DNA from: a virus
Taxonomy: Duplodnaviria; Heunggongvirae; Uroviricota; Caudoviricetes
Virus record (IMG/VR): IMGVR_UViG_3300012348_000120
Reading direction: 5' to 3' (one strand)
Length of the DNA: 64,000 nucleotides
The notes below the pieces were generated by a model. It was not told the DNA's origin and did no database searches. It was given only the letters and a program-made list of their open reading frames with translations. Below, one piece after another: positions 635 through 57,971 of this stretch; the first letter of the stretch is position 1, and each line of letters begins with the position of its first letter. The translations under genes and the position numbers were made by a program.

Positions 635-855
635 ATTATGTAGGTATTTATCAAATGGCTTTCAGTTCAGCACGAGACACGCCGTTGTGTCCACGAATGG
701 CATGAAAGAAAGACAAGGCGGCGGCACGAGTATCAAACACTTTTTCACCAGCATGACGACCATAGCGGCTCCAAACGACTTTGAACATTTCGTTCATCCC
801 TCTCTTGATTACTTTCTTACTATAGCTGATTCGCGTTAGATTGTCAAGTGTGTTT

Positions 856-1833: not shown

Positions 1834-2230
1834 TGAAAACCATAGGAAGAATTGCCATAAACATAGCAAAAATCCCACCAGCAACGACTTTCATCATATA
1901 ATTACTGGACTTCAAATCGCGAACTTGTCGTTGCAATGAATAATTTTTGCTCATCAGACTGCGATGTTCAGTTGACAGATTGTCATACATGTATTTCAAT
2001 GTCTGCAAGTCAGCAGAGTTTGCGTTTTGCTTATGATAGTTGTAATAAGCCAGTGCCTTCTCATACCAATACTTCGCGGTATGGCCATTGTAAGTAACTT
2101 CTTCAACCTTGGTGTCAAAGGATTGAGTTACTTTTCCACCTTTTTTTCGTGCCATACGCAGACAAGCAATCGCTTCATCTTCTGAAGTTGTGCTCATAGC
2201 CTTGGCGATAAGTTGGTTAGTTGTGCTCAT
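1829..2230 (-). CDS. hypothetical protein with C-terminal transmembrane helix
   Basis: 133-aa ORF; hydrophobic C-terminus VVAGGIFAMFMAILPMVF. Confidence 0.5.
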   Translation of the reverse strand: MSTTNQLIAKAMSTTSEDEAIACLRMARKKGGKVTQSFDTKVEEVTYNGHTAKYWYEKALAYYNYHKQNANSADLQTLKYMYDNLSTEHRSLMSKNYSLQRQVRDLKSSNYMMKVVAGGIFAMFMAILPMVFT

Positions 2231-2478
2231 TTTACTTCCACTTCACGATATTGAACTTCAAGCCATTCATATGCAGAAATAGCATCATTAGGAATCCAGC
2301 GACCTTTGACAAACTCATGCTCACGACCATGGTTAGGTAAGTCAGCGTAAGCCTCTTCGGCTGTTGGCCAACGATCAAGAACTACCGCGCTGTTTGGATA
2401 GTTACAACCATATTGGTCAACTTGTTGAATAACAACTTGCCATTCACACTGAATTGTTTTTGTCCTGAAGTTTTTCAT
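2227..2478 (-). CDS. hypothetical protein
   Basis: 83-aa ORF; ATGA overlap with the upstream gene. Confidence 0.5.
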   Translation of the reverse strand: MKNFRTKTIQCEWQVVIQQVDQYGCNYPNSAVVLDRWPTAEEAYADLPNHGREHEFVKGRWIPNDAISAYEWLEVQYREVEVK

Positions 2479-2646
2479 CAGTAATCCCGCTCAGTTTCAA
2501 ACATCACGCCAAAGACAAACATCAGGGCAAGCCCTGGAATAGCAAGGGCAGCAGCAACCCATAGGGAAACTCCTTCATCAATGCAACCAGCGGCAATCAC
2601 CATCAAAAGACCAATCATAACCATCACAGTGCGAAACCAAGCCATT
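2478..2646 (-). CDS. small hydrophobic membrane protein (about 56 aa)
   Basis: not in the ORF track; RBS cagaaaggaaaataca then ATG; two predicted TM helices; stop overlaps the next ATG. Confidence 0.45.
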
Positions 2647-2662
2647 GTATTTTCCTTTCTGA

Positions 2663-2929
2663 TTAGGTGCGAACCGAAATGGTTGAACCATCTTTGAATT
2701 TCATATAGAAGCCATCATAGTAGTCAGCATCACCATGATCTTTTTCAAACTTGCCATATTCTTCTTCAAGGGCATCATATGCAATCACGGGAACAGACGT
2801 ATGAAACAGCTTGGCATCACGAGGATCAAACTTGACAAACTGTGCAAGGTGAGCGATGGTGGTTGACGTATCACCTTCTGCGGGATTGATCAGAAGCCGA
2901 GAACCGAAATGAGAAGCGAGAGTTTTCAT
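2663..2929 (-). CDS. hypothetical protein (start trimmed to MKTLASHFGS)
   Basis: ATG after a conserved-leader-like RBS; the track ORF runs through the promoter. Confidence 0.5.
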   Translation of the reverse strand: MKTLASHFGSRLLINPAEGDTSTTIAHLAQFVKFDPRDAKLFHTSVPVIAYDALEEEYGKFEKDHGDADYYDGFYMKFKDGSTISVRT

Positions 2930-2946
2930 GGTTGTCTCCTTGTTTG

Positions 2947-2986
2947 CTACAGGATATGTATATAGTGATTCGTAGTTCTTGTCAAG
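2947..2986 (-). promoter_or_regulatory. early promoter plus leader (copy)
   Basis: gene-sense TTGACA-agaactacgaatcac-TATATA-catatcctgtagc. Confidence 0.6.
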
Positions 2987-3194
2987 CCACATTCGGCTCA
3001 AGACGGAAAAACCACGAGTTTTTGTTTTCGGAAAACTTCGCAAGCACACGCTCACCGCAATGACGATAAGTGTTCATCAAACGAAGGCAAGCGAGTTCGG
3101 AACCAAAGGCATATAGCGTTCCACCAATTTCTTCAACCTCAAGATTTTCTTTTGCATGGATTTCAAACTCACGCTTGGCACGGAAAAGGTTCAT
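2982..3194 (-). CDS. hypothetical protein
   Basis: ATG preceded by cctgtaaccaagagagaggaaaccag. Confidence 0.5.
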   Translation of the reverse strand: MNLFRAKREFEIHAKENLEVEEIGGTLYAFGSELACLRLMNTYRHCGERVLAKFSENKNSWFFRLEPNVA

Positions 3195-3210
3195 CTGGTT
3201 TCCTCTCTCT

Positions 3211-3252
3211 TGGTTACAGATTACTTATATAGTGATTCGTATGGAATGTCAA
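3211..3252 (-). promoter_or_regulatory. early promoter plus leader (copy)
   Basis: gene-sense TTGACA-ttccatacgaatcac-TATATAagtaatctgtaacc. Confidence 0.6.
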
Positions 3253-3262
3253 TAGAAAAAAC

Positions 3263-4513
3263 TCAAGCGGCGGCAACCGCTTGAGTCCGAGCACGTTTCA
3301 TGCCTTCTTTGATCTTTTCAACTTTCTTTTCACCATTCGGGAAAACATCGTTGAACTTCACACTCTTGAACGCTTCCCACTTAGTCAGCAGAACATCCAG
3401 TTGATCAACAGGATTGTTTTCACTACCCAGACGACCACGCTCATCGCACATACCAACCCGATGCAGAACATTCACAGTCTCAGGATCATTCAGCGAACCC
3501 ATTTCATCAAACATTTTGACGAAAGTTTTAGCAGTCAGTTCATCCAGCTTGTGCATATTCATGTGAAACCGAGTAGCTTTCATAGCACGGTCACGCATCT
3601 TAGCAGGAACAGTCAGCCGATCAGCAAAGGCTTCAACAACGGGAACACCTTTCACGTCATGACCGAAGTGCTTCGGAAAGTCTTCTTTACGAGTCAGACC
3701 TTTACCAAAGTCATGAACCAGTGCAGCAAACCGAGTTTCCAGATCAAACCCAAACTTGGCAGCTTGAGTCAGAACCAGCATGGTATGCTCAAAGGCATTA
3801 CCTTCGGGATGCCAACGACGACTTTCCATTGCAGAACACAGGGCATACACTTCAGGAAACAGAACATGCAGAGCATCACATTCCAGCAGCGTATCAAAGA
3901 ACAGACGAGGATGGGGTTCCATCAGAGCACGGCTCAGTTCTTTCCACACACGTTCAGCAGTCAGTTCGTTCAGAACACCCTTCTTGGCCATCATGTGAAC
4001 CAGTTCACGAGTTTCCTTGGCAACAGTCCATTCCGCACCAAAACGAGCGCGAAACCGAGCCAGCCGCAGAACACGAACAGGGTCTTCAACAAAAGCATCA
4101 GAAGTATGACGCAGCACTTTCGCTTGCAGATCGTCTTGACCACCAAAGGGATCAAACAGAGCAAAACGACCTTCGTCACCTTCAACAAAGAACTCAGTGT
4201 CTTCCATCCGTTGCAGAGACATACTGTTGATGGTCAGGTCACGACGAGACAGGTCTTCTTCCAGCGTCACATCAGTGCCGAACTCAGAAGTGAAACCCAG
4301 ATACCCAGTGCCAGTCTTTTTTTCACGACGAGCCAGAGCAAATTCTTCACCAGTTTCGGGGTGCAGAAACACAGGAAAATCAGCGCCAACTTTTTCAAAG
4401 CCAGCAGCCAGCATTTCTTCGACCGTGGAACCAACCACCACGAAATCTTTATCTTTCGGCTCCATGCCCATCAGCATATCGCGAACAGCACCGCCGACCA
4501 GAAACGTTTGCAT
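3263..4513 (-). CDS. cca: CCA-adding tRNA nucleotidyltransferase with HD domain
   Basis: N-terminal PolB-type NTase (GGAVRD...DxD) plus HD-domain residues along 417 aa; start trimmed to MQTFLVGG after RBS aaggaa. Confidence 0.85.
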   Translation of the reverse strand: MQTFLVGGAVRDMLMGMEPKDKDFVVVGSTVEEMLAAGFEKVGADFPVFLHPETGEEFALARREKKTGTGYLGFTSEFGTDVTLEEDLSRRDLTINSMSLQRMEDTEFFVEGDEGRFALFDPFGGQDDLQAKVLRHTSDAFVEDPVRVLRLARFRARFGAEWTVAKETRELVHMMAKKGVLNELTAERVWKELSRALMEPHPRLFFDTLLECDALHVLFPEVYALCSAMESRRWHPEGNAFEHTMLVLTQAAKFGFDLETRFAALVHDFGKGLTRKEDFPKHFGHDVKGVPVVEAFADRLTVPAKMRDRAMKATRFHMNMHKLDELTAKTFVKMFDEMGSLNDPETVNVLHRVGMCDERGRLGSENNPVDQLDVLLTKWEAFKSVKFNDVFPNGEKKVEKIKEGMKRARTQAVAAA

Positions 4514-18526: not shown

Positions 18527-18919
18527 TTATCCGTTTACCATACCAAACCATACGGCATCAGCTTCATATGCGAACACGAAGTGGTTATTCAACTGAATAT
18601 ATGCCCCAGGTTTTAGGTTTTTTTCACACCATAACATTGCATCTTTATACTTCAATGCAGGTATTTTCACACGAGTATACTTGTATTTTTCAACAATCTC
18701 TGAAAACCTATGAAACTTCTTACGGTTTGGCAACCGAACAAAATGCTGATAGTGAACTTTCTGCATAATAACCGACCCTTTTTCATAAATCATTGCATCA
18801 ATATAGTTGTCGGACGACATGTTTTGAACGCCAATAATATCATTTGCAATGATATTTGGCATAACTCGTCTTATGAGCGGCAGTAATACCTTGGCTGTGT
18901 TTGTATCTAACTCATTCAA
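18527..18919 (-). CDS. hypothetical protein
   Basis: 130-aa ORF. Confidence 0.5.
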   Translation of the reverse strand: MNELDTNTAKVLLPLIRRVMPNIIANDIIGVQNMSSDNYIDAMIYEKGSVIMQKVHYQHFVRLPNRKKFHRFSEIVEKYKYTRVKIPALKYKDAMLWCEKNLKPGAYIQLNNHFVFAYEADAVWFGMVNG

Positions 18920-19166: not shown

Positions 19167-19738
19167 AATCCATGATCCTTTTTGTATTGAGTAAGCCAGT
19201 TTACTGCTCTTACTCGTTCTCTATCCCATCGTGGAATATGTTCTTCATATCCAACATAATATGGCCAAGTTGTGGGCTTCACATACGACTGTGGTGCTGA
19301 CAACTTTTCAATGGCTTCATCAATAGTTACGTTTCCACCAGAACCAAATACTCCCTGAATCTTTGCCGCTTCATGTTTCCCAAGTCCCTCAAGGGTAGAA
19401 ATACCAAGGGCGGTTTCCGCCCAACATTTCATACAGGATGCAGCAACACAGGTGCAATCACCCATATGAGAATATTGAAGTTCACTTACAAGTGCGGCTA
19501 CTCTTGAATCATCTTCATCCATATCACAGATTCTTGCCCACGCCGAAACTCGTCGTAGAATGTCTTTGTTAGATAGTGGGGGTTTGTTTTGATTGATGTG
19601 TTCTTCAAGTGTTAGAGACAGATCACAAAGAATCTCAACATAATCCTCGTTTTGAAGATACATACAAATACGTTGACGATCCCGTTCATCAACATCAACT
19701 GTTGTGAGTAGTGGGTTTTGATGCCAGTTTATTTTCAT
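19163..19738 (-). CDS. hypothetical Cys-containing protein
   Basis: 191-aa ORF. Confidence 0.5.
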   Translation of the reverse strand: MKINWHQNPLLTTVDVDERDRQRICMYLQNEDYVEILCDLSLTLEEHINQNKPPLSNKDILRRVSAWARICDMDEDDSRVAALVSELQYSHMGDCTCVAASCMKCWAETALGISTLEGLGKHEAAKIQGVFGSGGNVTIDEAIEKLSAPQSYVKPTTWPYYVGYEEHIPRWDRERVRAVNWLTQYKKDHGF

Positions 19739-37465: not shown

Positions 37466-37707
37466 GATTGTTGCCCGTATAGCAATGCATACATTGCCGC
37501 ATCATCAAATGTCATAACATAGCAGATTTGCCAGCGTTCAATATAATCCATTGTATCTAACATCAACTCAGTTCTATCAAGTTTGTGAGTTTCAAGATAG
37601 TTTAGCCATGGCATCTTTGATGCCATTCCCTCAACCAAATCGGAGTATTTATCGCCAGCCGCCAAGGCCCACTCAACGTAAACTGCGCCTGAATCAGTGT
37701 CGATCAT
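37462..37707 (-). CDS. hypothetical protein
   Basis: 81-aa ORF, ATGA coupling. Confidence 0.45.
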   Translation of the reverse strand: MIDTDSGAVYVEWALAAGDKYSDLVEGMASKMPWLNYLETHKLDRTELMLDTMDYIERWQICYVMTFDDAAMYALLYGQQS

Positions 37708-48528: not shown

Positions 48529-48559
48529 TGTCTTTCTCTTTCAGTGTTGGTTTGATTCT

Positions 48560-48600
48560 ACATTTCTCATACTAACAGATAAATACATATATGTCAAGAA
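48560..48600. promoter_or_regulatory. divergent promoter region: minus-strand early promoter plus plus-strand ATAAATAC late-promoter-like box
   Basis: minus-sense cTTGACAtatatgtatttatctgttagTATGAG; plus-sense cagATAAATACat about 40 nt before the ATG at 48620. Confidence 0.45.
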
Positions 48601-48619
48601 ATGATGAAGGGATTTTTCA

Positions 48620-49354
48620 ATGAAATACAATGCAGACATGCTAAAGTGGAAGCGTCTTATCGAAAGTATATCAAGACAAGACGAGCAAGCAGAAGATGAG
48701 CCTGACCATGAAGTTGGTATGGCAAAGGGCCAATTGCTTTCGGCAGTGAAAAATGCAACTCGCATCGCAAAACATCTATCTAAAACCTCAGAAGAAGATG
48801 GAATAGATGGATGGATTGCAAGTAAAATTACATTAGCGAGTGACTACATCGAGAATGTGGCCAACTATATGGACGGTCAATCTCTGAGAGAATCATCAGA
48901 AGGTGGCGACAAGACGGATACCGTGACGATGGATGTTCCTCTCATTCTTCGCATAATGGAATATGCAAGAGAAGAAATAAAAGATGATGTGACTTTGCAC
49001 AAGGTTGCGGAAAAATTGGTTGAGTTGTCAAAAACAAAATCCCTTTCTATGGATGACTACGAATCTATTGTTGGCGAGGCCGCTGCTACTATGACAGAAG
49101 CAAGAGGCGAAGAGGTTTCCTCACCAGAAGAAGCAATTGAGCAAGCATATGACTATCTGGATACTCGCCATGATAGTTTGGATATGGTAGAAATTATGAC
49201 CAAAGATGGATCAGCTTTCATTCTTCGTGATTCCCAAAACCGAAACGGAATAAACTCAATGAAAGAACGCGGATGGAAAACAGTAATCATCGCGCACAAA
49301 GATCGAACTCTTAGAACCACTAAAAAATATGAATACGTGAAAACCGAGCAATAA
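48620..49354 (+). CDS. acidic hypothetical protein; the only plus-strand gene in the window; possible late gene
   Basis: 244-aa ORF with RBS gaaggga; bracketed by the divergent promoter region and a bidirectional terminator. Confidence 0.55.
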   Translation: MKYNADMLKWKRLIESISRQDEQAEDEPDHEVGMAKGQLLSAVKNATRIAKHLSKTSEEDGIDGWIASKITLASDYIENVANYMDGQSLRESSEGGDKTDTVTMDVPLILRIMEYAREEIKDDVTLHKVAEKLVELSKTKSLSMDDYESIVGEAAATMTEARGEEVSSPEEAIEQAYDYLDTRHDSLDMVEIMTKDGSAFILRDSQNRNGINSMKERGWKTVIIAHKDRTLRTTKKYEYVKTEQ

Positions 49355-49355
49355 A

Positions 49356-49395
49356 AAAAAGCCCTACAAAAAGTAGGGCTTTATTATTTCTGAGA
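49356..49395. terminator. bidirectional intrinsic terminator
   Basis: aaaaaaaagccctacaaaaagtagggctttattattt; hairpin flanked by A-tract and T-tract. Confidence 0.7.
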
Positions 49396-49455
49396 GTTAG
49401 TCCTTCGCGGGTTGCCTTATTGTTGACAACTTATGTTATTTATACAAAACTTAAA

Positions 49456-49869
49456 TTATAGCTTTACTTTTCCCTGTTCTATAAGAATTTTTCTATTTGC
49501 TGCATGCGCATCGGCTACTAACTTTTTATTTTCGCCGTTATATGGAACTGCCAAATGATTTTCAAGTAGGTGTTGACTGAGCAAAACTCCATCCACGCGA
49601 ATGTCTCCAAGTATACGCCCATACTTTCCTCTAAACTCCATTGAAACAAGAGTACATTCCTTTCCAACTGGAAGCATTTCTGTCACACATTTTTTGGCCA
49701 GCAGTCCAAATACTTTTTCTTGGGCATCTAATGTTTTGCTTTCTGGTGTATCAATTCCCTGAATGCGAATACGTTCTGATTGCATCCACACTCCGAACCC
49801 CAAGTCAATGTTCACATCAACTGTGTCGCCATCTATTACTTCTACGATCACGCATCTATACTCATACAT
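49456..49869 (-). CDS. staphylococcal-nuclease (SNase/thermonuclease)-like nuclease
   Basis: VIDGDTVDV...IRIQGIDTPE...GKYGRILGDI matches SNase fold motifs. Confidence 0.65.
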   Translation of the reverse strand: MYEYRCVIVEVIDGDTVDVNIDLGFGVWMQSERIRIQGIDTPESKTLDAQEKVFGLLAKKCVTEMLPVGKECTLVSMEFRGKYGRILGDIRVDGVLLSQHLLENHLAVPYNGENKKLVADAHAANRKILIEQGKVKL

Positions 49870-50867
49870 TATTCAATATCCTTCTTGCTTACTTGTTTCC
49901 ATTCACCATAAATTCCATGATCTGGCAAGTATAGCATACGGTCGTTCCAAGATATTTCTGTTCCACTTTCAATTATTGCATCAATATTTTCTACGTAACT
50001 ATTCATGTAATGATCTGGAAGTTCTTTTCCAACTTCATAGAACGATAAACTCTCTTCAGATGCAAACAGCCAAAAACTATTCACGCCGTAATTCAAACTG
50101 TCTGGCTCATCAATATAGCAGTATTTTCCATTTTCCAATAGCTTTATCATAGTACCAAGATGTGCGTAACGATTTCTGTGTGTTCCAGTAGGAGGAACTA
50201 ATGCAACTACATCAGTTTCGTTTACGATGCGAGTAAGTTTTATTTTACCTCTCATCACACGAGTTCCTATTGAATCTGTGACTTTTGGCTGTCCAAAGGT
50301 AATACACTCAGCGATGTTGAAATTACTGTAATCTAAATACCAAGACACAATAAGGGCTTGTGCCGCACCAAGGCTGTGACCAGTAACATATATGCTGTAT
50401 GTTTTGTCTAAGCGATTTAGCAAATCATCCGCAATTAGTTCTGCGGTTCTATGAAATCCAGTATGCAGATAAATTCCCAAACGAAAACTTTTGTCTTTTA
50501 GAAAGTTTATGTCTTGTAATGCGTTGTGTGAATTATTTGTTCCACGAATTGAAATGTAATACTTTTTTGTGGCATCGTCTTTCAATACGATATATTTGAT
50601 GCTATTGATTTCATGTATGTAAATTTCTGAGAAGGTTTCATACTTTTTGCGTATAACATCGTTGTCTCTTTTGTATGCGTATGCAGCAAGAACAGCGAAC
50701 CAACGAATGTTGACCCAATCGATCTCACGTGATCGTTCAACGTTCTGAACGAACGTTTCGTCCAGTCTGTATCTTTTTACGATTGCTCTGCGAATAAGTT
50801 TTGCAAAATTGGCAATAAGCCATTTTTGAAATACATGCCGTAGCAAGTATGAAATAATAATACTCAT
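49869..50867 (-). CDS. class-3 (fungal-type) lipase-like alpha/beta hydrolase with N-terminal hydrophobic segment
   Basis: ISIRGT motif and nucleophile elbow VTGHSLGAAQA. Confidence 0.7.
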   Translation of the reverse strand: MSIIISYLLRHVFQKWLIANFAKLIRRAIVKRYRLDETFVQNVERSREIDWVNIRWFAVLAAYAYKRDNDVIRKKYETFSEIYIHEINSIKYIVLKDDATKKYYISIRGTNNSHNALQDINFLKDKSFRLGIYLHTGFHRTAELIADDLLNRLDKTYSIYVTGHSLGAAQALIVSWYLDYSNFNIAECITFGQPKVTDSIGTRVMRGKIKLTRIVNETDVVALVPPTGTHRNRYAHLGTMIKLLENGKYCYIDEPDSLNYGVNSFWLFASEESLSFYEVGKELPDHYMNSYVENIDAIIESGTEISWNDRMLYLPDHGIYGEWKQVSKKDIE

Positions 50868-50900
50868 AGCGTCTCTCCCAACAGCTATGAGTATTTATCG

Positions 50901-51764
50901 TCAATCTTTGAATTTGTTCTCTATGTAATTTATAATTTCTTCAACACTTGACAGACGAAGTGAGGATGCCTTTGCTAAAAACTTATCCAAGTCTGGACGC
51001 GACGAGCCATTTCTTGCATTATGTATATCTGCGGCCAATGATCGTTTAGCATCATTTTTATACCAGCCATCCATATTAGACAACAGGCGTCTTGCATCTT
51101 TACTGAGTTTTGATTTATCTGGAACCGACAACAACTCCATATATGGTGCAAAGTAGTTCCTTGAAACACGGGCGTATGGTTTTACTATCTCTTGGTTGGT
51201 GTCATATTTTAGAGTTGAAATGCTTACTGATTTTGACGTATTCAACAGTTTGAATGCTTCTATGTCATCATATACATACATCTTTATTCCAAGTTTATTC
51301 GCCATCAGATATGCAGCCCGTAGCCATCTTACGCTTTTTGCCTTCATATCTTCATCTGATTCTGCTTTGTAAAATACGTGTATCTCTTTTAGATACTTTG
51401 ACGCACCTTCAATGTATGGCTTTTTACTGAACAAACGATCTTCCATTTCATCTTTGTTGCCCCATCCCCAATAGTCAATTGGGTTGCCAGTATATCCATC
51501 TTGTTTTAACTGTCTGCCATCAATCACCAAGAGTGCAAGATTTCCAGCATACTTGCTTGGTTGATGATAATCTCCCATCTTGCTTCTTGCGAAACTCATG
51601 TAATAGATACGGTTTTTCTTTCGTAGATTTGCTTCTGCGTCCGTGCCAATGTCTGGAGTCAATTGAAATTTGTTATTTTTTAGAATGCTCAACACATTAT
51701 ACAAACTGGTAGAATGATAGAGTATATCACTCAATCCTTCGGTTATAATTTGTGACATTTTCAT
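50901..51764 (-). CDS. hypothetical protein (start trimmed to MKMSQIITEG); ATAAATAC late-promoter-like box upstream
   Basis: RBS ggagaacatca before the ATG; gene-sense ttgATAAATACatcaaatacc about 25 nt upstream. Confidence 0.5.
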   Translation of the reverse strand: MKMSQIITEGLSDILYHSTSLYNVLSILKNNKFQLTPDIGTDAEANLRKKNRIYYMSFARSKMGDYHQPSKYAGNLALLVIDGRQLKQDGYTGNPIDYWGWGNKDEMEDRLFSKKPYIEGASKYLKEIHVFYKAESDEDMKAKSVRWLRAAYLMANKLGIKMYVYDDIEAFKLLNTSKSVSISTLKYDTNQEIVKPYARVSRNYFAPYMELLSVPDKSKLSKDARRLLSNMDGWYKNDAKRSLAADIHNARNGSSRPDLDKFLAKASSLRLSSVEEIINYIENKFKD

Positions 51765-51815
51765 TGATGTTCTCCAACTGGTATTTGATGTATTTATCAA
51801 AAAAAACGCAGCCAA

Positions 51816-51850
51816 TAAAGGCTGCGTTGAGTAGGAAAACCAAATGAAAT
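51816..51850 (-). terminator. intrinsic terminator
   Basis: gene-sense caacgcagcctttattggctgcgtttttttt. Confidence 0.65.
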
Positions 51851-51859
51851 TATTATATA

Positions 51860-52102
51860 TTATGCCATGAAGCCAGTTCGTTTACGTGGATCGCCATAGT
51901 GTTCACGGGCGTTCACGCGAATGAACTTTTTGTTAGTTTCATTCTTGTTTGGGTTTTCAATGGTAATCACTACGTTCTTACCAGCTTTCCATGCCAGAAG
52001 CTGGTTCATAATCCGATCCGCAGGATGACGAGTTGCGGTCTTCATTGACCCAATACGTTCACCCTTGGAAGTGTAATGCTTACCAGATGCTTTCTTACCC
52101 AT
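51860..52102 (-). CDS. small basic hypothetical protein
   Basis: 80-aa Lys/Arg-rich ORF. Confidence 0.5.
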   Translation of the reverse strand: MGKKASGKHYTSKGERIGSMKTATRHPADRIMNQLLAWKAGKNVVITIENPNKNETNKKFIRVNAREHYGDPRKRTGFMA

Positions 52103-52619: not shown

Positions 52620-53329
52620 GCATCCAATATGGGCAATAGTTTTTGTGTAAGGTTTGCAGCTTTTTCACTGCTTTCGTCTACAAACGTATCAAAATCAAAG
52701 TGAGACGTATTTCCAGCCAAGTCACTCAAAACACGAATGACAATGAATGGCTTGCTCCAGTTACAGCAAACTTGTGCGATTGCCGCACCTTCCATTTCAA
52801 CTGCGTCTGCGCCGAATTTGTTTCGTAGTTGTTCTCTGGTTGTGCTACAAGCCACATAGGTGTCGCCTGTCAAGACCTTGCCAAAGTAAACATCATGGTC
52901 TGGTCCGAGAAGATGGCGAATGGTATTCTTCATTGCGGTTGGCATTTTGTAAGAGACGTTTTTATCATCTTCGGTATACCCAGGAAAACTCCCAGGAATC
53001 GCATTGAAGAAAACACTTTTTGACATTGTGCCGTAATCATGCTGCACAAGTTCATCTGCAATGATGACTTGTCCTATATTGAGTTTTGGATTTATTCCAC
53101 CAGCAACGCCGCTAAAAATAATCCCATCACAGTTGTAGTGGCCAAGAAGCAAAGAAGTGGTCATTGCAGCGTTTACTTTTCCAATACCGCACTCTGCGGC
53201 AATTACGTCAACGCCGTTGATTGTTCCAAATTGGAATATCTTGTTTATTATAGATTCTGTTCTTGGTGCAGCGTCCCAAGATAATTTAGAATATTCTTCT
53301 GGAATTGCGGATATTACGCCAATTGGCAT
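52610..53329 (-). CDS. mtnN: 5'-methylthioadenosine/S-adenosylhomocysteine nucleosidase
   Basis: GVISAIPEE..., SGVAGGINP, AVEMEGAAIAQVC, VIRVLSDLAGN match Pfs/MtnN. Confidence 0.8.
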   Translation of the reverse strand: MPIGVISAIPEEYSKLSWDAAPRTESIINKIFQFGTINGVDVIAAECGIGKVNAAMTTSLLLGHYNCDGIIFSGVAGGINPKLNIGQVIIADELVQHDYGTMSKSVFFNAIPGSFPGYTEDDKNVSYKMPTAMKNTIRHLLGPDHDVYFGKVLTGDTYVACSTTREQLRNKFGADAVEMEGAAIAQVCCNWSKPFIVIRVLSDLAGNTSHFDFDTFVDESSEKAANLTQKLLPILDAWL

Positions 53330-53631
53330 TAGGCTGGCTCCACCGTAGATTTTAGTGGATGGTCATGAACTTTGGCTACATGAGAAACATCTGAAACCTT
53401 TTGTTCTGCGATTTCCAAGTTATACATTCCCACAATTGCTTTGCCTTCTTCGTGAATCTTCATTGTAAGATCAAAAGAAGTTTGAGGATCATGATGGAAG
53501 ATTTCAATCAATACATCAACGACGAAATCCATTGGAGTTGTGTCATCATTATGCATAATGACATAATAGTTAAGAGGTTCAGTAATTTCTACTTCAGTTC
53601 GACTTGATGATTTTACTTCTGCTATTGACAT
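53329..53631 (-). CDS. clpS: ClpS ATP-dependent Clp protease adaptor
   Basis: YYVIMHNDDTTPMDFVVDVL...GKAIVGMY matches the ClpS core. Confidence 0.8.
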   Translation of the reverse strand: MSIAEVKSSSRTEVEITEPLNYYVIMHNDDTTPMDFVVDVLIEIFHHDPQTSFDLTMKIHEEGKAIVGMYNLEIAEQKVSDVSHVAKVHDHPLKSTVEPA

Positions 53632-53680
53632 TGTTTCTATCCAGTAAAGGTGAGGGGCTTATTCAGCCCCTCTGTTAAAA

Positions 53681-54118
53681 TTATACTTGAGTGATCTCGA
53701 TGCGCTTTGGCTGTAGTTCTGGTGGAACAACTCTGGTTAGATGAATGTTCAACATTCCCAACTCCAATGTTGCATTAGAGATTTCGATATGATCCGCAAG
53801 AGTAAACTCTCTACGGAATGCCCGACCTGCAATACCTTTGTGTAGGTAATTTACTTCTTCCTCACCCGATGGCGGTGTTCCTTCAATTCGCAATATGTTT
53901 TTATCGCGAGTGATTTCAAGGTTGTCCATTCCAAATCCAGCCACGGCCAGAGTAACCATATACTCATTTTCATTGATCTGTGCAACATTATATGGAGGGT
54001 ATCCCCCACTGTTGACTCCACTCAGTTGCGCGTCAAGCGCACTTAGTAACTTGTCAAAACCAATTGTTGCACTGTATAGGTGTGGAATAGATGAAGATGT
54101 AATTTTTCGTTGTGTCAT
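53681..54118 (-). CDS. small heat-shock protein (Hsp20/alpha-crystallin family; IbpA-like)
   Basis: alpha-crystallin domain (YNVAQINENEYMVTLAVAGF...ILRIEG...AFRREFTL); start trimmed to MTQRK after AAGGAGA. Confidence 0.75.
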   Translation of the reverse strand: MTQRKITSSSIPHLYSATIGFDKLLSALDAQLSGVNSGGYPPYNVAQINENEYMVTLAVAGFGMDNLEITRDKNILRIEGTPPSGEEEVNYLHKGIAGRAFRREFTLADHIEISNATLELGMLNIHLTRVVPPELQPKRIEITQV

Positions 54119-54169
54119 TTTTTTCTCCTTAATAAGCAAGAATATCGTGACCCATTATGGCGTCACAGT

Positions 54170-54215
54170 AAAGTTCAAATCATTATGAAACTTTACACCA
54201 TCAATATAACACTTT
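54170..54215 (-). promoter_or_regulatory. sigma70-type promoter with about 80-nt structured leader upstream of hsp20
   Basis: gene-sense TTGACAatcaacataaaaagtgtTATATT, then hairpin gtgacgccataatgggtcac. Confidence 0.5.
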
Positions 54216-54235
54216 TTATGTTGATTGTCAATAGT

Positions 54236-54505
54236 TTAGAGACCAATTTTTTCAGAAAAAAGTTCAATACTTTTTGCTGGTCCGACTTGACTTGGCAATC
54301 CCCCATACTCATCCATGTATGACTGAATGACAGACTTATACCATAGTTGAGAATTGTGGTGTGCCAGTTTATTGAACTTTGAAAGTCCATCATTTGTCCC
54401 GTCCATTGTCAATAATGCACGGGTAGATTCTTTTTGCAATGTTCTCAAATCCAGACTGTCTAAGTTGATCAGTCGTTTCTCATCTGACGTAGCTTCTTCT
54501 GCCAT
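54236..54505 (-). CDS. hypothetical protein
   Basis: 89-aa ORF. Confidence 0.45.
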   Translation of the reverse strand: MAEEATSDEKRLINLDSLDLRTLQKESTRALLTMDGTNDGLSKFNKLAHHNSQLWYKSVIQSYMDEYGGLPSQVGPAKSIELFSEKIGL

Positions 54506-54717
54506 CTTTTTTTGCCCGCATCTTTATCTTTTCTGCGTTTCTCACTTCCACCAACATATTCTTGGCGGTCGCGATATTCTTGAATGATGTTTTCATCAAC
54601 GCATAGTTTTTTGAACCTACGGATTGCACGTTCAACATTTCCATTCTTCACAGTGACAGTTGTCCCTGATTTAATGTGTCGCTCTTGGTCGTTGCCTTTT
54701 ATATAATGTTTAGCCAT
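54469..54717 (-). CDS. rpsU: ribosomal protein S21 homolog
   Basis: VKNGNVERAIRRFKKLCVDENIIQEYRDRQEY...KRRKDKDAGKKRWQKKL parallels bacterial bS21. Confidence 0.65.
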   Translation of the reverse strand: MAKHYIKGNDQERHIKSGTTVTVKNGNVERAIRRFKKLCVDENIIQEYRDRQEYVGGSEKRRKDKDAGKKRWQKKLRQMRND

Positions 54718-55234
54718 CTTTTGTTATAACACCTGTAATTCGATTTCCCGATTGTTTAAGTTCTTGTTCATATTTGAAGTTTGAAAGAAGTGATGCAATA
54801 TCATCTATCATGCTTGCAATCACATCAGACCCTTTCGTGATCTCCCGACCACGAAGTGGAATTGTAATTTTTACTTTTGCATTAGCTTCAAGGAACTTCA
54901 TAACCTGTTTCATTTTGATTTCAAGGTCATGAATACCGATTCCCGGTCTGATCTTTACCTCTTTTACTTCAACAACATTCTGTCGTGCTTTTTTCTCAGC
55001 ATCTTTCTGACGCTTTTTTTGCTCGTAGGTATATTTAGCTACATCAACAATTCGTGCAACAGGAGGGTTGCTTTGTAGTGTGATTACAACTAAATCCAGA
55101 TTTTTATTATAGGCAAGACTTCTTGCTTTTGATGTTTCCATAACACCAAGTTGAGTTCCATCATCATCGATGACTCTGACCTCAGTGCTTTTAATATACT
55201 CGTTGTAGACGATTGTGTTGGCGGAATTAGTCAT
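54710..55234 (-). CDS. infC: translation initiation factor IF-3 homolog
   Basis: N- and C-domains align with E. coli IF3 ([14 protein letters not shown]...LDLVVI...PPVARIVD...[14 protein letters not shown]...[12 protein letters not shown]); start trimmed to MTNSANT overlapping the clpX stop. Confidence 0.75.
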
Positions 55235-56471
55235 TTTGAGTATCGGAAAGTCCTTGCTCGTCATTGAATACCATAATAGGTTTGTTGCTTCCTTCGATAA
55301 ATTCTTTGGTGATAATCACCTTTTTCAGTCCTTCTTTTGCAAGAGTTGGTAATTTAAATTGTAGTTGTAGTAGAGATTTTTCAATAACACTACGAAGACC
55401 ACGCGCACCAGTTTTGTTATTTATTGCTTGCTTCGCAACAGACTTGATTGCATCATCTGTAAATTCAAGTTCAACATTATCAAGGCTGAACAAGCGAATA
55501 AATTGGCTTACGATGTTGTTCTTTGGCGCAGTCATTACATGAATAAGCTGTTCCTCTGACAAGTTGTCCAGTCCAACAATGATAGGAAAGCGGCCCATAA
55601 ATTCTGGAATAAGACCGAATTTCATAAGGTCTTGTGCCATAATGTTCTGCCGAACATTTACTTCATCATTTTCAGATTTTACACTTGCATTGAAGCCAAT
55701 GCCACTCTTTTTGTTGACACGGCGCTCAATTATCTTATCTACGCCAACGAATGCCCCGCCGACAATGAATAGAATGTTAGTGGTATTTACCTCAATCATA
55801 TCTTGGCCAGGATGCTTTCTGCCGCCGCCAGGGGGGACACGAACCTTGGTGCCTTCAACGATTTTCAGAAGTGCTTGCTGGACGCCTTCACCAGAAACAT
55901 CTTTTGTAATCGACACGTTTTCGCCTTTCTTGGCTTTCTTGTCAATTTCATCAATGTATACAATTCCACGCTCTGCTTTTTCAATATCAAAGTCAGCAGC
56001 AATAAGTAGACGCTGAACGACATTTTCAACATCTTCTCCAACATACCCACTTTCAGTGAGTGTAGTGGCGTCCACTTGTGCGAATGGGACATCCAATATT
56101 TTAGCAACTGTTTTTGCGATCAGTGTTTTGCCTGTGCCAGACGGACCCAAAAGAATGACGTTAGATTTCTCAATCTCAATGTCACTATTTGTATGATTGA
56201 TACGCTTGTAATGATTATATACGGCCACACTCAATACTTCTTTTGCTTCATCTTGACCAATGATGTATTGGTCAAGATGTGCTTTTATTTCTTCTGGTGT
56301 GGGGAAACTGTCAGTAGATTTGTGCTTTTCCGACTTTTTCTGATGAATAATGTCATAGCATAAATCAATACACTCATCACATATATAAATTCCTGGCCCT
56401 GCAATTAGCGTGTTGACTTCGGATTTGTTCTTGCCGCAAAACGAACAAGAGTAGTTTTTATTATCAGACAT
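55227..56471 (-). CDS. clpX: ClpX ATP-dependent unfoldase (full length, with C4 zinc-binding domain and IGF loop)
   Basis: CSFCGK...CDEC ZBD, Walker A GPSGTGKT, pore loop GYVG, IGF docking tripeptide, sensor motifs. Confidence 0.9.
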
Positions 56472-56480
56472 ATTTCCTCG

Positions 56481-57917
56481 TTATTTGCGAATGTAATCTA
56501 ACCATCCGTTAGGTTTTCTTGGTGTTTTGATAATCGTAGGCTCTGGTGTTGCCTCCGTTTTATTTATCACAGTATATGACTTTTCACTGGTAGTTAGGTC
56601 ATTATGCGTAATTTCTTCATCAATAACAGTTTGATTATCACTTATATCCTCTTGATTGTCAAGAGGTTTTTCAGTCTTTTCTTCGTTAGTTTGACGTGAA
56701 AAGATTGCTTCAAAGATTTCCTCTTGGCCTCTGTCATCATGACGATGCTTCCAAGAGAAGTTTGCTGCAATCAACAACAAAACTGCCAGTGGATCAAACA
56801 CAAAAATGAATACAATGATTAGCCAACGGACTGCAACGTCAATTGTGCTTTTCTCTGTATTCCCATATACTAATTCTGCAATGTATTTTATCGGCCCAAC
56901 TTCTGCTTCTAATTTACGAATTTCTGTTTCCAGCATAAACTTTTCTTCAACCATTTTATTCAGTTCATCAGTCTCAGTTTCAATCTGAGTTTGAACCTTT
57001 TGAACTTCAGCCGTATTGTCAGCAGTAGAAACAGTTGTAAGTTGTTGACGTAAGTTGTCAATGGTTGTTTGTGATGCTGCAACCTCTTGTTCTGCCAATG
57101 AACGAATACGTGCAATCTCTGCACGTGCTGCATCAATTTTTGACTGGTCTGCGTTTTGCTGTGCTTTTGCTATTGAATCAAGTAAAGCGTTTTTCTCACT
57201 GATTTTTTGTTGTTTGAAACGATCAACTGCCGCAGTTGTTTGTGACCCATAGTTTCCATCAGCTTCAACGCCGACCATTGCTTGTAATTGAGCAATACTA
57301 TTAGATTCAATATAGCTTTGTATCTGTGCCAACTCAGCGTCAATTTGCTCAACACTACGTTGATAGGTCTGAACTTCTGGACTTGCGCCACTCTGTTCTC
57401 TTTCGATTATAGCATTTTGCTCATCAATCGCTGGTTGAATACGTGCATAAGCCTGATCTTTTCTTGCCTGTTCAGCATCAATCTGTGCTTGTATACTTGC
57501 AGTGTTGTCACTTGTCTGTGATTGCAACTCTTTTGATTTTTCTATAAGAGATGCAATCTCTCGTTCTTTATTGCTAATTTCTGAAGCAAACTGTTCAACT
57601 TGCGCACTACCTTGTTCCATTTGTGCAGATTGTTCTAAGTGAGCCTTAGACAAAAAGCCAAAAATGCCCATCGATGTGATGAACATCAAGATGACTGTCG
57701 CCGCAGTCAAATACGACTTCAATAGAAATGGTGCAATATTCCAGTTTCTATAAACCCAAGATGCAGATACTAACTTGCCCACTTCAAGCGATCCCGCCAT
57801 CAATGCAACAGGAATCGCAGCAGAAGAAAATATAGCAATCAACCCTGCGATAGAAAACCAAGCCGCAATGATTGCAATAGCAATAGCGACAATAAATGTA
57901 ATAATTGGAAATAACAT
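56481..57917 (-). CDS. membrane protein with N-terminal TM helices, long Gln/Ala-rich coiled coil, PG_binding_1-like motif and C-terminal TM helix
   Basis: VGVEADGNYGSQTTAAVDRFKQQ matches a peptidoglycan-binding-domain consensus; start trimmed to MLFPIITFIV after gagaggggg. Confidence 0.55.
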   Translation of the reverse strand: MLFPIITFIVAIAIAIIAAWFSIAGLIAIFSSAAIPVALMAGSLEVGKLVSASWVYRNWNIAPFLLKSYLTAATVILMFITSMGIFGFLSKAHLEQSAQMEQGSAQVEQFASEISNKEREIASLIEKSKELQSQTSDNTASIQAQIDAEQARKDQAYARIQPAIDEQNAIIEREQSGASPEVQTYQRSVEQIDAELAQIQSYIESNSIAQLQAMVGVEADGNYGSQTTAAVDRFKQQKISEKNALLDSIAKAQQNADQSKIDAARAEIARIRSLAEQEVAASQTTIDNLRQQLTTVSTADNTAEVQKVQTQIETETDELNKMVEEKFMLETEIRKLEAEVGPIKYIAELVYGNTEKSTIDVAVRWLIIVFIFVFDPLAVLLLIAANFSWKHRHDDRGQEEIFEAIFSRQTNEEKTEKPLDNQEDISDNQTVIDEEITHNDLTTSEKSYTVINKTEATPEPTIIKTPRKPNGWLDYIRK

Positions 57918-57971
57918 TACCAACCCCCTCTCAAAATAACTCTCACCTGTATTTATCATTTTTGAGGGACT

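Follow-up and report, generated by a model that had tools for sequence, protein, structure and literature searches.

A four-gene island with probable late-type promoters inside the early region of an uncultured huge phage

We analysed a stretch of 64,000 nucleotides (nt) of the tailed-phage record IMGVR_UViG_3300012348_000120, hereafter called the window. The layout of positions 48578–51828 is best explained as a self-contained, terminator-bounded island of four genes lying inside an early region, and served by three copies of the box GATAAATAC, which we consider to be promoters of a late type with a probability of about 0.65. The plus strand of the island encodes an acidic protein, and its minus strand a 288-residue protein with an ADP-ribosyltransferase (ART) fold, a class-3 lipase and a nuclease of the staphylococcal nuclease (SNase) type. 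A preliminary description, made from the letters alone, had proposed that the genes of the acidic and the 288-residue proteins, both preceded by T4-like boxes, may be expressed late. The boxes do form a distinct, co-oriented and conserved class with the core of T4 late promoters, while the late timing itself is what we infer from the company that the boxes keep in related phages.

The window has a GC content of 40.6%. Neither the island region nor the whole window has a nucleotide match among 50,697 phage records, and there is no cultured close relative. Metagenomic contigs of 347–356 kb carry proteins of the window, which therefore belongs to an uncultured huge phage; the best explanation is that it lies within the long early region, coded on one strand, of a myovirus-like phage of about 350 kb. 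Mapped by codon usage over its full length, the window has about 120 genes on the minus strand, the plus strand being used only at 48620–49354, and independent gene calls over 20 kb around this gene concur with what had been noticed at the outset, namely that it is alone on its strand. A strong promoter of the sigma-70 type, TTGACa-N7-ACGAATCACTATATACATA, is present in about 16 copies (16–17), on the minus strand only, which identifies the window as an early region. No copy is found within 48529–51860, so that the island is indeed embedded in early DNA without having an early promoter of this kind.

The early promoter in its full form reads TTGACa-N7-ACGAATCACTATATACATA..CTGTA(A/G), and the motif CGAATCA in its spacer is invariant (example sites on the minus strand: 63988, 63638, 63149, 27524, 3252, 2985, 1832 and 1588). 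This conservation extends far beyond what recognition by sigma-70 needs, which suggests that an additional factor or an UP-like signal is involved besides sigma-70.

Read leftward, the island consists of a terminator (T1), a box, the gene of the 288-residue protein, a second box, the lipase gene, the SNase gene, a conserved element of about 90 nt and a second terminator (T2). Next come the acidic gene on the opposite strand, from its box at 48578–48586 to 49354, and a sigma-70-like promoter that restarts leftward transcription. T1 (51805–51828, minus strand) is an intrinsic terminator with a 9-bp stem, including six GC pairs, and a T8 tail (−16.6 kcal/mol); it lies directly 5′ of the island and closes the early transcription unit upstream. 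The same layout, a terminator followed by its T-run and then by the box, is seen in the related loci L001 and L013. T2 (49358–49382; −15.8 kcal/mol when read on the plus strand, −17.4 kcal/mol on the minus strand) is the strong bidirectional terminator that had been seen behind the acidic gene, and it is common to the acidic gene and to the convergent ART-lipase-SNase unit. Its stem is kept in four relatives, with one compensatory change from A-U to G-C in L015.

The acidic gene was first described as preceded by a divergent promoter. A plus-strand box is present there, and what lies on the minus strand is a sigma-70-like promoter (48569–48597) with TTGACA at 48597–48592, a 17-nt spacer, TAGTAT at 48574–48569 and a TG element (10 of 12 matches); the box sits within the spacer of this promoter, so that the original wording has to be corrected. 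The sigma-70-like promoter is kept in L001 and L013, and its position is not kept in L015. Upstream of the acidic gene there is no plus-strand sigma-70-like promoter and the box is the only promoter-like element on that strand. We infer that the interdigitated box and leftward promoter would, by mutual occlusion, make a simple early/late toggle.

An overlap of the two promoter types was also observed elsewhere: in a relative, small genes on the opposite strand form a short block (L021 380–46, minus strand) about 35 kb to the right of window position 48620. One of these genes is DUF1127-like as judged by motif, and the block is preceded by a sigma-70-like promoter (TTGAAA-17-TATATT) and an adjoining TATAAATAC box.

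The three copies of GATAAATAC are the only promoter-like elements inside the island. The core ATAAATAC occurs at 48579–48586 (plus strand), 34 nt ahead of the ATG of the acidic gene, and at 51790–51797 (minus strand), 26 nt ahead of the ATG of the ART-fold protein at 51764; these are the two boxes of the preliminary description, in which the third copy, at 50891–50898 (minus strand) and 24 nt ahead of the ATG of the lipase, had been missed. The complete boxes span 48578–48586, 51790–51798 and 50891–50899, with predicted starts at about 48591, 51785 and 50886, respectively. All three are kept in L001 and L013, and the box of the acidic gene is also kept in L015, in which the box of the lipase gene is TATAAATAC, directly behind a terminator.

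The number and the placement of the boxes are not those of chance words. The 9-mer GATAAATAC occurs seven times in the window against 0.52 expected, none of 100 shuffles reaching seven, and a G precedes all seven copies of ATAAATAC, while TATAAATA, the T4 consensus in its exact form, is no more frequent in the window than expected (2 against 2.3). Every one of the seven boxes is co-oriented with the gene or tRNA downstream: five lie 23–34 nt ahead of a start codon with a Shine-Dalgarno sequence, one (644–652, minus strand) lies 10 nt upstream of the mature 5′ end of a tRNA-Arg, and the seventh, at 37653, is ambiguous, being inside a called open reading frame (ORF) about 19 nt before an in-frame ATG. 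We extended the count to 124.6 kb of non-redundant family sequence, that is, the window plus IMG/VR and Logan contig loci with 80–100% protein identity. In this set GATAAATA[C/T] is found 21 times in the sense of the bulk of the genes and once antisense, and the antisense copy is precisely the box of the acidic gene, the single antisense gene. In L015, a second plus-strand gene likewise has a plus-strand box ahead of it. Relatives at 80%, 64% and 58% protein identity still have the boxes of the acidic, lipase, 288-residue, 478-residue and 438-residue protein genes, while the intergenic flanks diverge, and L015 keeps the box of the acidic gene though the overlapping minus-strand TTGACA is changed and shifted.

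Boxes are also associated with tRNA genes in other loci of the family. A GATAAATAC box at 19436–19444 of L104 (plus strand) is 7 nt upstream of the mature 5′ end of a tRNA, and in L018 (T/C)ATAAATAC variants stand directly behind the 3′ ends of other tRNA genes; the tRNA genes thus appear to belong to the box-driven class. A box at 57957–57949 also bears on the annotation of the gene at 56481–57959 (minus strand), for which 57959, the start of the longest ORF, is probably not the true start: the ATG at 57917 has a strong Shine-Dalgarno sequence, GAGAGGGGG, ahead of it, and gene calls in public collections also take the shorter product of 478 residues, a multi-pass membrane protein with a faint tetraspanin match.

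The architecture of the boxes is that of a promoter without a −35 element. When 11 independent sites are aligned, no position from −45 to −1 reaches an information content of 0.8 bit, and the nucleotide 6 nt past the last A of ATAAATA, which corresponds to +1 in T4 late promoters, is A in nine sites and G in two (this geometry is taken from PMC1524935, and the start sites of the boxes are predicted from it). Three boxes, at 51798, at position 870 of L016 and ahead of the lipase gene of L015, abut the T-run of an intrinsic terminator, which leaves no room there for a specific or conserved −35 element. Together, these features support the idea that the ATAAATAC boxes are a distinct class of promoters, devoid of −35 element and built on the T4 late core ATAAATA.

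T4 late promoters (TATAAATA at −13 to −6, used with the sigma factor gp55, gp33 and the gp45 clamp) have in common with the boxes the ATAAATA core, the lack of a −35 element and a purine at the expected +1. The variable first base of the box, compared to TATAAATA, agrees with what is seen in RB49, KVP40, S-PM2 and other T4-like phages, among which the first base of the late consensus is poorly conserved (PMC1524935). In relatives, boxes are seen ahead of some lysis and virion-type genes, and like T4 late promoters they also occur inside early regions. Unlike the T4 consensus, the box has a G at the first position and a conserved C or T at its 3′ end (GATAAATAC), and it also precedes tRNA genes.

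The window has no structural genes, and the association with late functions was sought by walking outward on contigs of relatives in IMG/VR, leftward through L104, L112 and L157 and rightward through L021, L165 and L168 (the last two on the same contig as L001). To the left, the same-strand block goes on, with small genes, tRNAs and an endolysin: in L112, a GATAAATAT box is located 26 nt ahead of a GH19 endolysin gene (phrog_181, E = 5e-79). To the right, in L165/L168, GATAAATAC precedes the gene of a 437-residue protein of phrog_14154 ("virion structural protein"), an operon that ends in a PAAR protein (phrog_281) and a 590-residue tape-measure- or hub-like protein, and the gene of an 81-residue protein of phrog_11854 ("virion structural protein"). 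The primase, DnaB helicase and exonuclease genes of this stretch, by contrast, lie behind sigma-70-like promoters. Boxes ahead of endolysin and virion-type genes, and sigma-70-like promoters ahead of replication genes, are the pattern that is expected of a late class.

Several observations weigh against the conclusion that the boxes are late promoters. The genes that link the box to late functions are an endolysin gene, those of a PAAR operon and genes that PHROG labels "virion structural", and they were found in close relatives rather than in this genome; both walks ended short of the major capsid, portal and sheath genes. No homologue of gp55, gp33 or gp45 was detected with PHROGs in about 150 kb of family sequence (of a genome of about 350 kb), in a search that included concatenated-ORF "polyproteins". 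The box at 37653 lies within a called ORF and is not kept in L013, and the box at 48578 overlaps a promoter of the opposite strand. Last, boxes also precede tRNAs and several genes annotated without function, which fits a "middle" class equally well. It may be, then, that the boxes are genuine non-early promoters of a middle or delayed-early class, read by another phage sigma factor or by a phage RNA polymerase, and that the island acts in host takeover. The boxes precede tRNA genes twice and are also found ahead of metabolic genes or genes with no assigned role (encoding the 438-residue protein, the 478-residue membrane protein and the phrog_11974 proteins), and they are interleaved with replication genes, all of which, like the missing T4 factors, speaks for such a class. 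We nevertheless consider this, or any other non-early class, clearly less probable than a late type, since the core and the geometry match the ATAAATA consensus of gp55-type promoters and since the endolysin gene, the PAAR/hub-like operon and the virion-structural PHROG families carry the box.

That the boxes are not promoters at all, being AT-rich words found by chance, parts of opposite-strand sigma-70 promoters, or signals for RNA processing or translation, is highly improbable. The position of the box at 48578 in the spacer of another promoter could be taken in this sense, and so could the fact that every box is in a 5′ leader, which is also the expected place for an RNA signal; seven copies for 0.52 expected and a strand bias of 21:1 are difficult to reconcile with it, as are the boxes placed directly behind terminators, where there is little upstream RNA, and the fact that a box is the sole candidate promoter of the antisense gene and persists in L015 despite the shifted −35 of the opposite strand. 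A last alternative concerns the genes rather than the boxes. The island would be a conflict cassette, in which the acidic protein inhibits the lipase (or the ART or the nuclease), confers immunity to it or serves as its chaperone, by analogy with effector-immunity or toxin-antitoxin pairs, the common boxes ensuring co-expression. All four relatives have the acidic gene and the lipase gene together, whereas the SNase and ART genes come and go, the acidic protein is modular, helical and has no enzymatic fold, and pairs of ART and antitoxin have been described in phages (PMC9503650). We find this proposal improbable all the same: the acidic protein has no homology to known immunity or antitoxin families in Pfam, PHROGs or PADLOC, its domains occur in thousands of other architectures without lipases, and the genes are convergent instead of being in one operon.

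If the boxes are promoters of a late type, the island could work as follows. Host sigma-70-type promoters would drive the early region, T1 would halt incoming early transcription, T2 would part the two convergent units, and the sigma-70-like promoter at 48597–48569 would restart early transcription to the left. The three GATAAATAC boxes, whose architecture resembles that of T4 late promoters (ATAAATA core, no −35, start about 6 nt downstream), would mark across the phage family a second temporal class, with lysis and virion genes among its members. After the early phase, the host RNA polymerase, redirected by a putative phage factor (gp55-like or a functional analogue), would initiate at the boxes; the rightward transcript would encode the acidic modular protein, the leftward transcripts the DarT/Tpt1-like ART, the class-3 lipase and the translationally coupled nuclease, and both units would terminate at T2. 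The three enzymes appear catalytically competent, judging from their residues. Most likely they would act late, the ART and the nuclease on host nucleic acid or protein and the lipase on membrane lipid. Alternatively, they may be loaded into virions for the next infection, by analogy with Alt of T4; the hints of packaging are the homology of the N-terminal domain of the acidic protein to a cyanomyovirus protein encoded between gp16 and gp17, and the fact that myovirus ARTs are often regarded as head-packaged.

The gene at 50901–51764 (minus strand) encodes a basic protein (pI 9.3) of 287 residues, called here the 288-residue protein, in which an N-terminal domain with the ART fold (residues ~10–130) is followed by a helical C-terminal domain. 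The preliminary description had not recognised this fold. The protein has 58 homologues in metagenomes and 38 phage records, often as several copies per genome (in Lu11, SCTP-2 and 253-kb Vibrio phages, for instance), and it receives no annotation from Pfam, PHROG or PADLOC. Residues H17, T19, S57, E106, E108 and R110 are invariant, and R60 nearly so (at least 90%). The AF2 model is a confident one, having a pLDDT of 87 and a pTM of 0.82; 108 of its residues align to the 120-residue chain 7yw4_A, the match being confined to the NAD lobe. At the level of sequence, a profile search of the PDB with this protein returned no ART and no DarT. The model has the split beta-sheet of the H-Y-[EDQ] clade of ARTs, in which strand 1 bears a conserved histidine and strand 5 an acidic catalytic residue, and we therefore assign the protein to the ART superfamily, as an enzyme of the H-Y-E type with an additional C-terminal helical domain.

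DarT, the thymidine ADP-ribosyltransferase of single-stranded DNA in the DarTG system, was rejected as an identity for this protein: there is no PADLOC or Pfam match even at E ≤ 1, the 288-residue protein has an extra helical domain of about 150 residues at its C-terminus, and no neighbouring gene is called as a DarG macrodomain in the gene lists. The RNA 2′-phosphotransferase Tpt1/KptA was also rejected, since that enzyme has an N-terminal RNA-binding lobe, carrying part of its Arg-His-Arg-Arg tetrad, which is missing here (residue 10 or so is already within the ART domain), and no KptA match was found in Pfam or PHROGs. The likeness to Alt of T4, an ART that is made late, packaged in the head and injected, is that of a phage ART apparently under a late-type promoter. 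Alt belongs to the R-S-E clade, unlike the 288-residue protein, whose signature is H-x-T ... S-x-x-R ... E-x-E on a DarT/Tpt1-like fold; the gene of the latter is in an early region, away from head genes, and its product has no MuF domain according to Pfam. ARTs are found in more than 40% of jumbo phages, and it has often been inferred that they are packaged in the head like Alt (PMC9503650).

Another protein of these phages may be an ART under the same class of promoter. The box-driven gene at 899–1942 of L016 (plus strand; paralogue at 2192–3310) encodes a 347-residue protein of phrog_11974 that contains "YGYHGTSLRRLRGILK", which resembles the ART strand-1 motif as found in the 288-residue protein. 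We do not claim that it is a paralogue of the 288-residue ART, the likeness being the motif "YHGTSL" only (BLASTP E = 0.14); it may represent a second ART family.

The lipase (49869–50867, minus strand, 332 residues) matches PF01764 with E = 5.9e-21 and 75.3 bits, well above the cut-off of 22, and has the RGT (108–110) and GHSLG (163–167) motifs that had been reported. In four relatives there is no change at its putative catalytic residues S165 (in GHSLG), D219 and H286. The first two align to their counterparts in the Rhizopus lipase, while H286, in a PDHY motif, is outside the aligned stretch and is the probable third member of the triad. The profile score and the Ser-Asp-His set with its GxSxG elbow thus place the protein in lipase class 3, so that the lack of catalytic residues, which would have undermined the initial assignment, was not observed. 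Class-3 lipases of the Rhizomucor/Rhizopus type and the phage "esterase/lipase" family phrog_21992 have in common with it the GHSLG nucleophile elbow, the aspartate and the DH..Y histidine motif; compared to these, the lipase of the island has an N-terminal extension of about 70 residues, with an amphipathic or hydrophobic start, and a C-terminal tail of about 45 residues.

The nuclease (49456–49869, minus strand, 137 residues) has the SNase fold (PF00565, E = 1.2e-9, 39 bits for a cut-off of 21; phrog_452, E = 5e-28), as first suspected. Its residues D15, R35, D40, T41, E43, Y83 and R85 align to D21, R35, D40, T41, E43, Y85 and R87 of staphylococcal nuclease, which comprise the Ca2+-binding and catalytic residues. 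The ATG of the gene overlaps the stop codon of the lipase gene (TAATG), which indicates that the two are co-transcribed. The nuclease and the lipase had been presented as an unusual pair. This does not hold in relatives: the SNase gene is absent in L013 and L014, and in L015, which has no gene of the 288-residue protein, a gene for 244 residues separates it from the lipase gene. The pairing is therefore incidental. The only members of the island that are together in all relatives examined are the acidic gene and the lipase gene, which adjoins the terminator region of the former each time; a functional pair, if there is any, would be made of these two.

The acidic protein (48620–49354, plus strand) has 244 residues and a pI of 4.87, in keeping with its first description, with 49 D+E for 34 K+R. 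In the AF2 model, it is made of an N-terminal three-helix module (~5–95), a small helical module (~100–152) and an alpha/beta C-terminal domain (~169–226); there is no informative fold match, and no family match that gives a function. The N-terminal domain is homologous to the N-terminus of proteins of about 710 residues that cyanomyoviruses encode between gp16 and gp17 (tblastn, 7e-9 and 8e-7). These "T4-like GC 119" proteins (SSM2_109 of S-SM2 and ORF117 of S-SCSM2R, for example) belong to the packaging/neck module, and the likeness is limited to their N-terminal 90–130 residues or so. A profile of the whole acidic protein matches 4438 representative clusters, and most of the matches listed involve the central domain of about 60 residues, in many architectures. 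In the relative with 58% identity (L015 10001–11074, plus strand), the C-terminal domain is swapped for a basic module of about 110 residues that ends with ...FGDPDMKIKKSNPERRKSFRARHNCDNPGPKTKARYWSCRKW, which shows that domains are shuffled at the C-terminus of this protein.

A gene located just to the right of the end of the window (L016 219–818, and L020–L099) encodes an alternative oxidase/PTOX that is 74–96% identical to proteins of hundreds of IMG/VR contigs, many of which look cyanomyovirus-like. This gene and the cyanophage-like N-terminal domain of the acidic protein are together a hint that genes were exchanged with cyanophages, or that the host is a cyanobacterium. Upstream of the PTOX gene, a cluster of metabolic genes (L021 552–7755, plus strand) encodes an NAD-dependent epimerase, a radical SAM enzyme, a thiolase-like protein, a methyltransferase, a sulfotransferase and an AMP-binding enzyme, and looks like a pathway for the modification of a small molecule or a glycan.

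Between the SNase stop codon and T2, the conserved 3′ element (49354–49446, minus strand) is made up, in this order, of the box variant TATAAATAA, AUAAGUU, a conserved single-stranded GGACUAACUCUCA and the terminator hairpin. L001, L013 (where the lipase gene precedes it) and L015 all retain the element, and no Rfam family matches it. It is a candidate small RNA of about 75 nt whose function is a matter of speculation; it contains a CUCUC tract, the complement of the GAGAG found in the Shine-Dalgarno tracts of early genes. A more elaborate proposal, which we regard as quite improbable, would combine these elements: the island would be a conserved late "effector cassette", in which the acidic protein is a dedicated inhibitor, chaperone or capsid-targeting adaptor for the lipase and the ART, and the small RNA made from the TATAAATAA box pairs by its ACUCUC tract with the GAGAG Shine-Dalgarno sequences of early mRNAs, thereby helping their shutoff. 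If that were true, this RNA would be a riboregulator of a huge phage that is driven by a late promoter and directed against Shine-Dalgarno sequences.

The design of the island is a fresh example of a known regulatory design, probably of the T4 late type, in a new lineage of huge phages. It leaves current concepts unchanged, and extends to this lineage the T4 late-promoter paradigm and the theme of ARTs that are late or packaged. For this family of phages of about 350 kb, a regulatory code emerges, with TTGACa-N7-ACGAATCACTATATACATA as the early motif and GATAAATA[C/T] as the late-type motif; the two motifs make it possible to assign hundreds of genes that lack annotation to temporal classes by sequence alone. 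The ART fold is now assigned to a family that had no Pfam or PHROG annotation and is spread through jumbo phages (Lu11, SCTP-2 and the 253-kb Vibrio phages), and the adjacency that is conserved is that of the acidic gene and the lipase, whereas that of the nuclease and the lipase is fortuitous.

Regarding the rest of the window, its genes encode ClpX, ClpS and HSP20, ribosomal protein S21 and IF3, a CCA-adding enzyme and an RNA ligase, a GMP-reductase-like protein, DHFR, thymidine kinase, a subtilase and an SPFH protein, in addition to three tRNAs. The genes of ClpS, HSP20, S21, IF3 and ClpX are gathered in one early operon (53329–57959, minus strand), which is adjoined by a PNP_UDP_1 gene whose product resembles MTA/SAH nucleosidases; this cluster is a module for proteostasis and translation takeover, typical of huge phages.

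Last, an ORF at 18527–18919 (minus strand) encodes 130 residues with the N-terminus LLPLIRRVMPNIIANDIIGVQNMSS, which we take to be like the conserved N-terminal motif of the T4 major head proteins gp23 and gp24. Beyond its N-terminus the protein is unrelated to gp23/gp24, and PHROGs gives only a weak match to phrog_138; it could be a fragment of a major capsid protein, a decoy or a remnant inside the early region.

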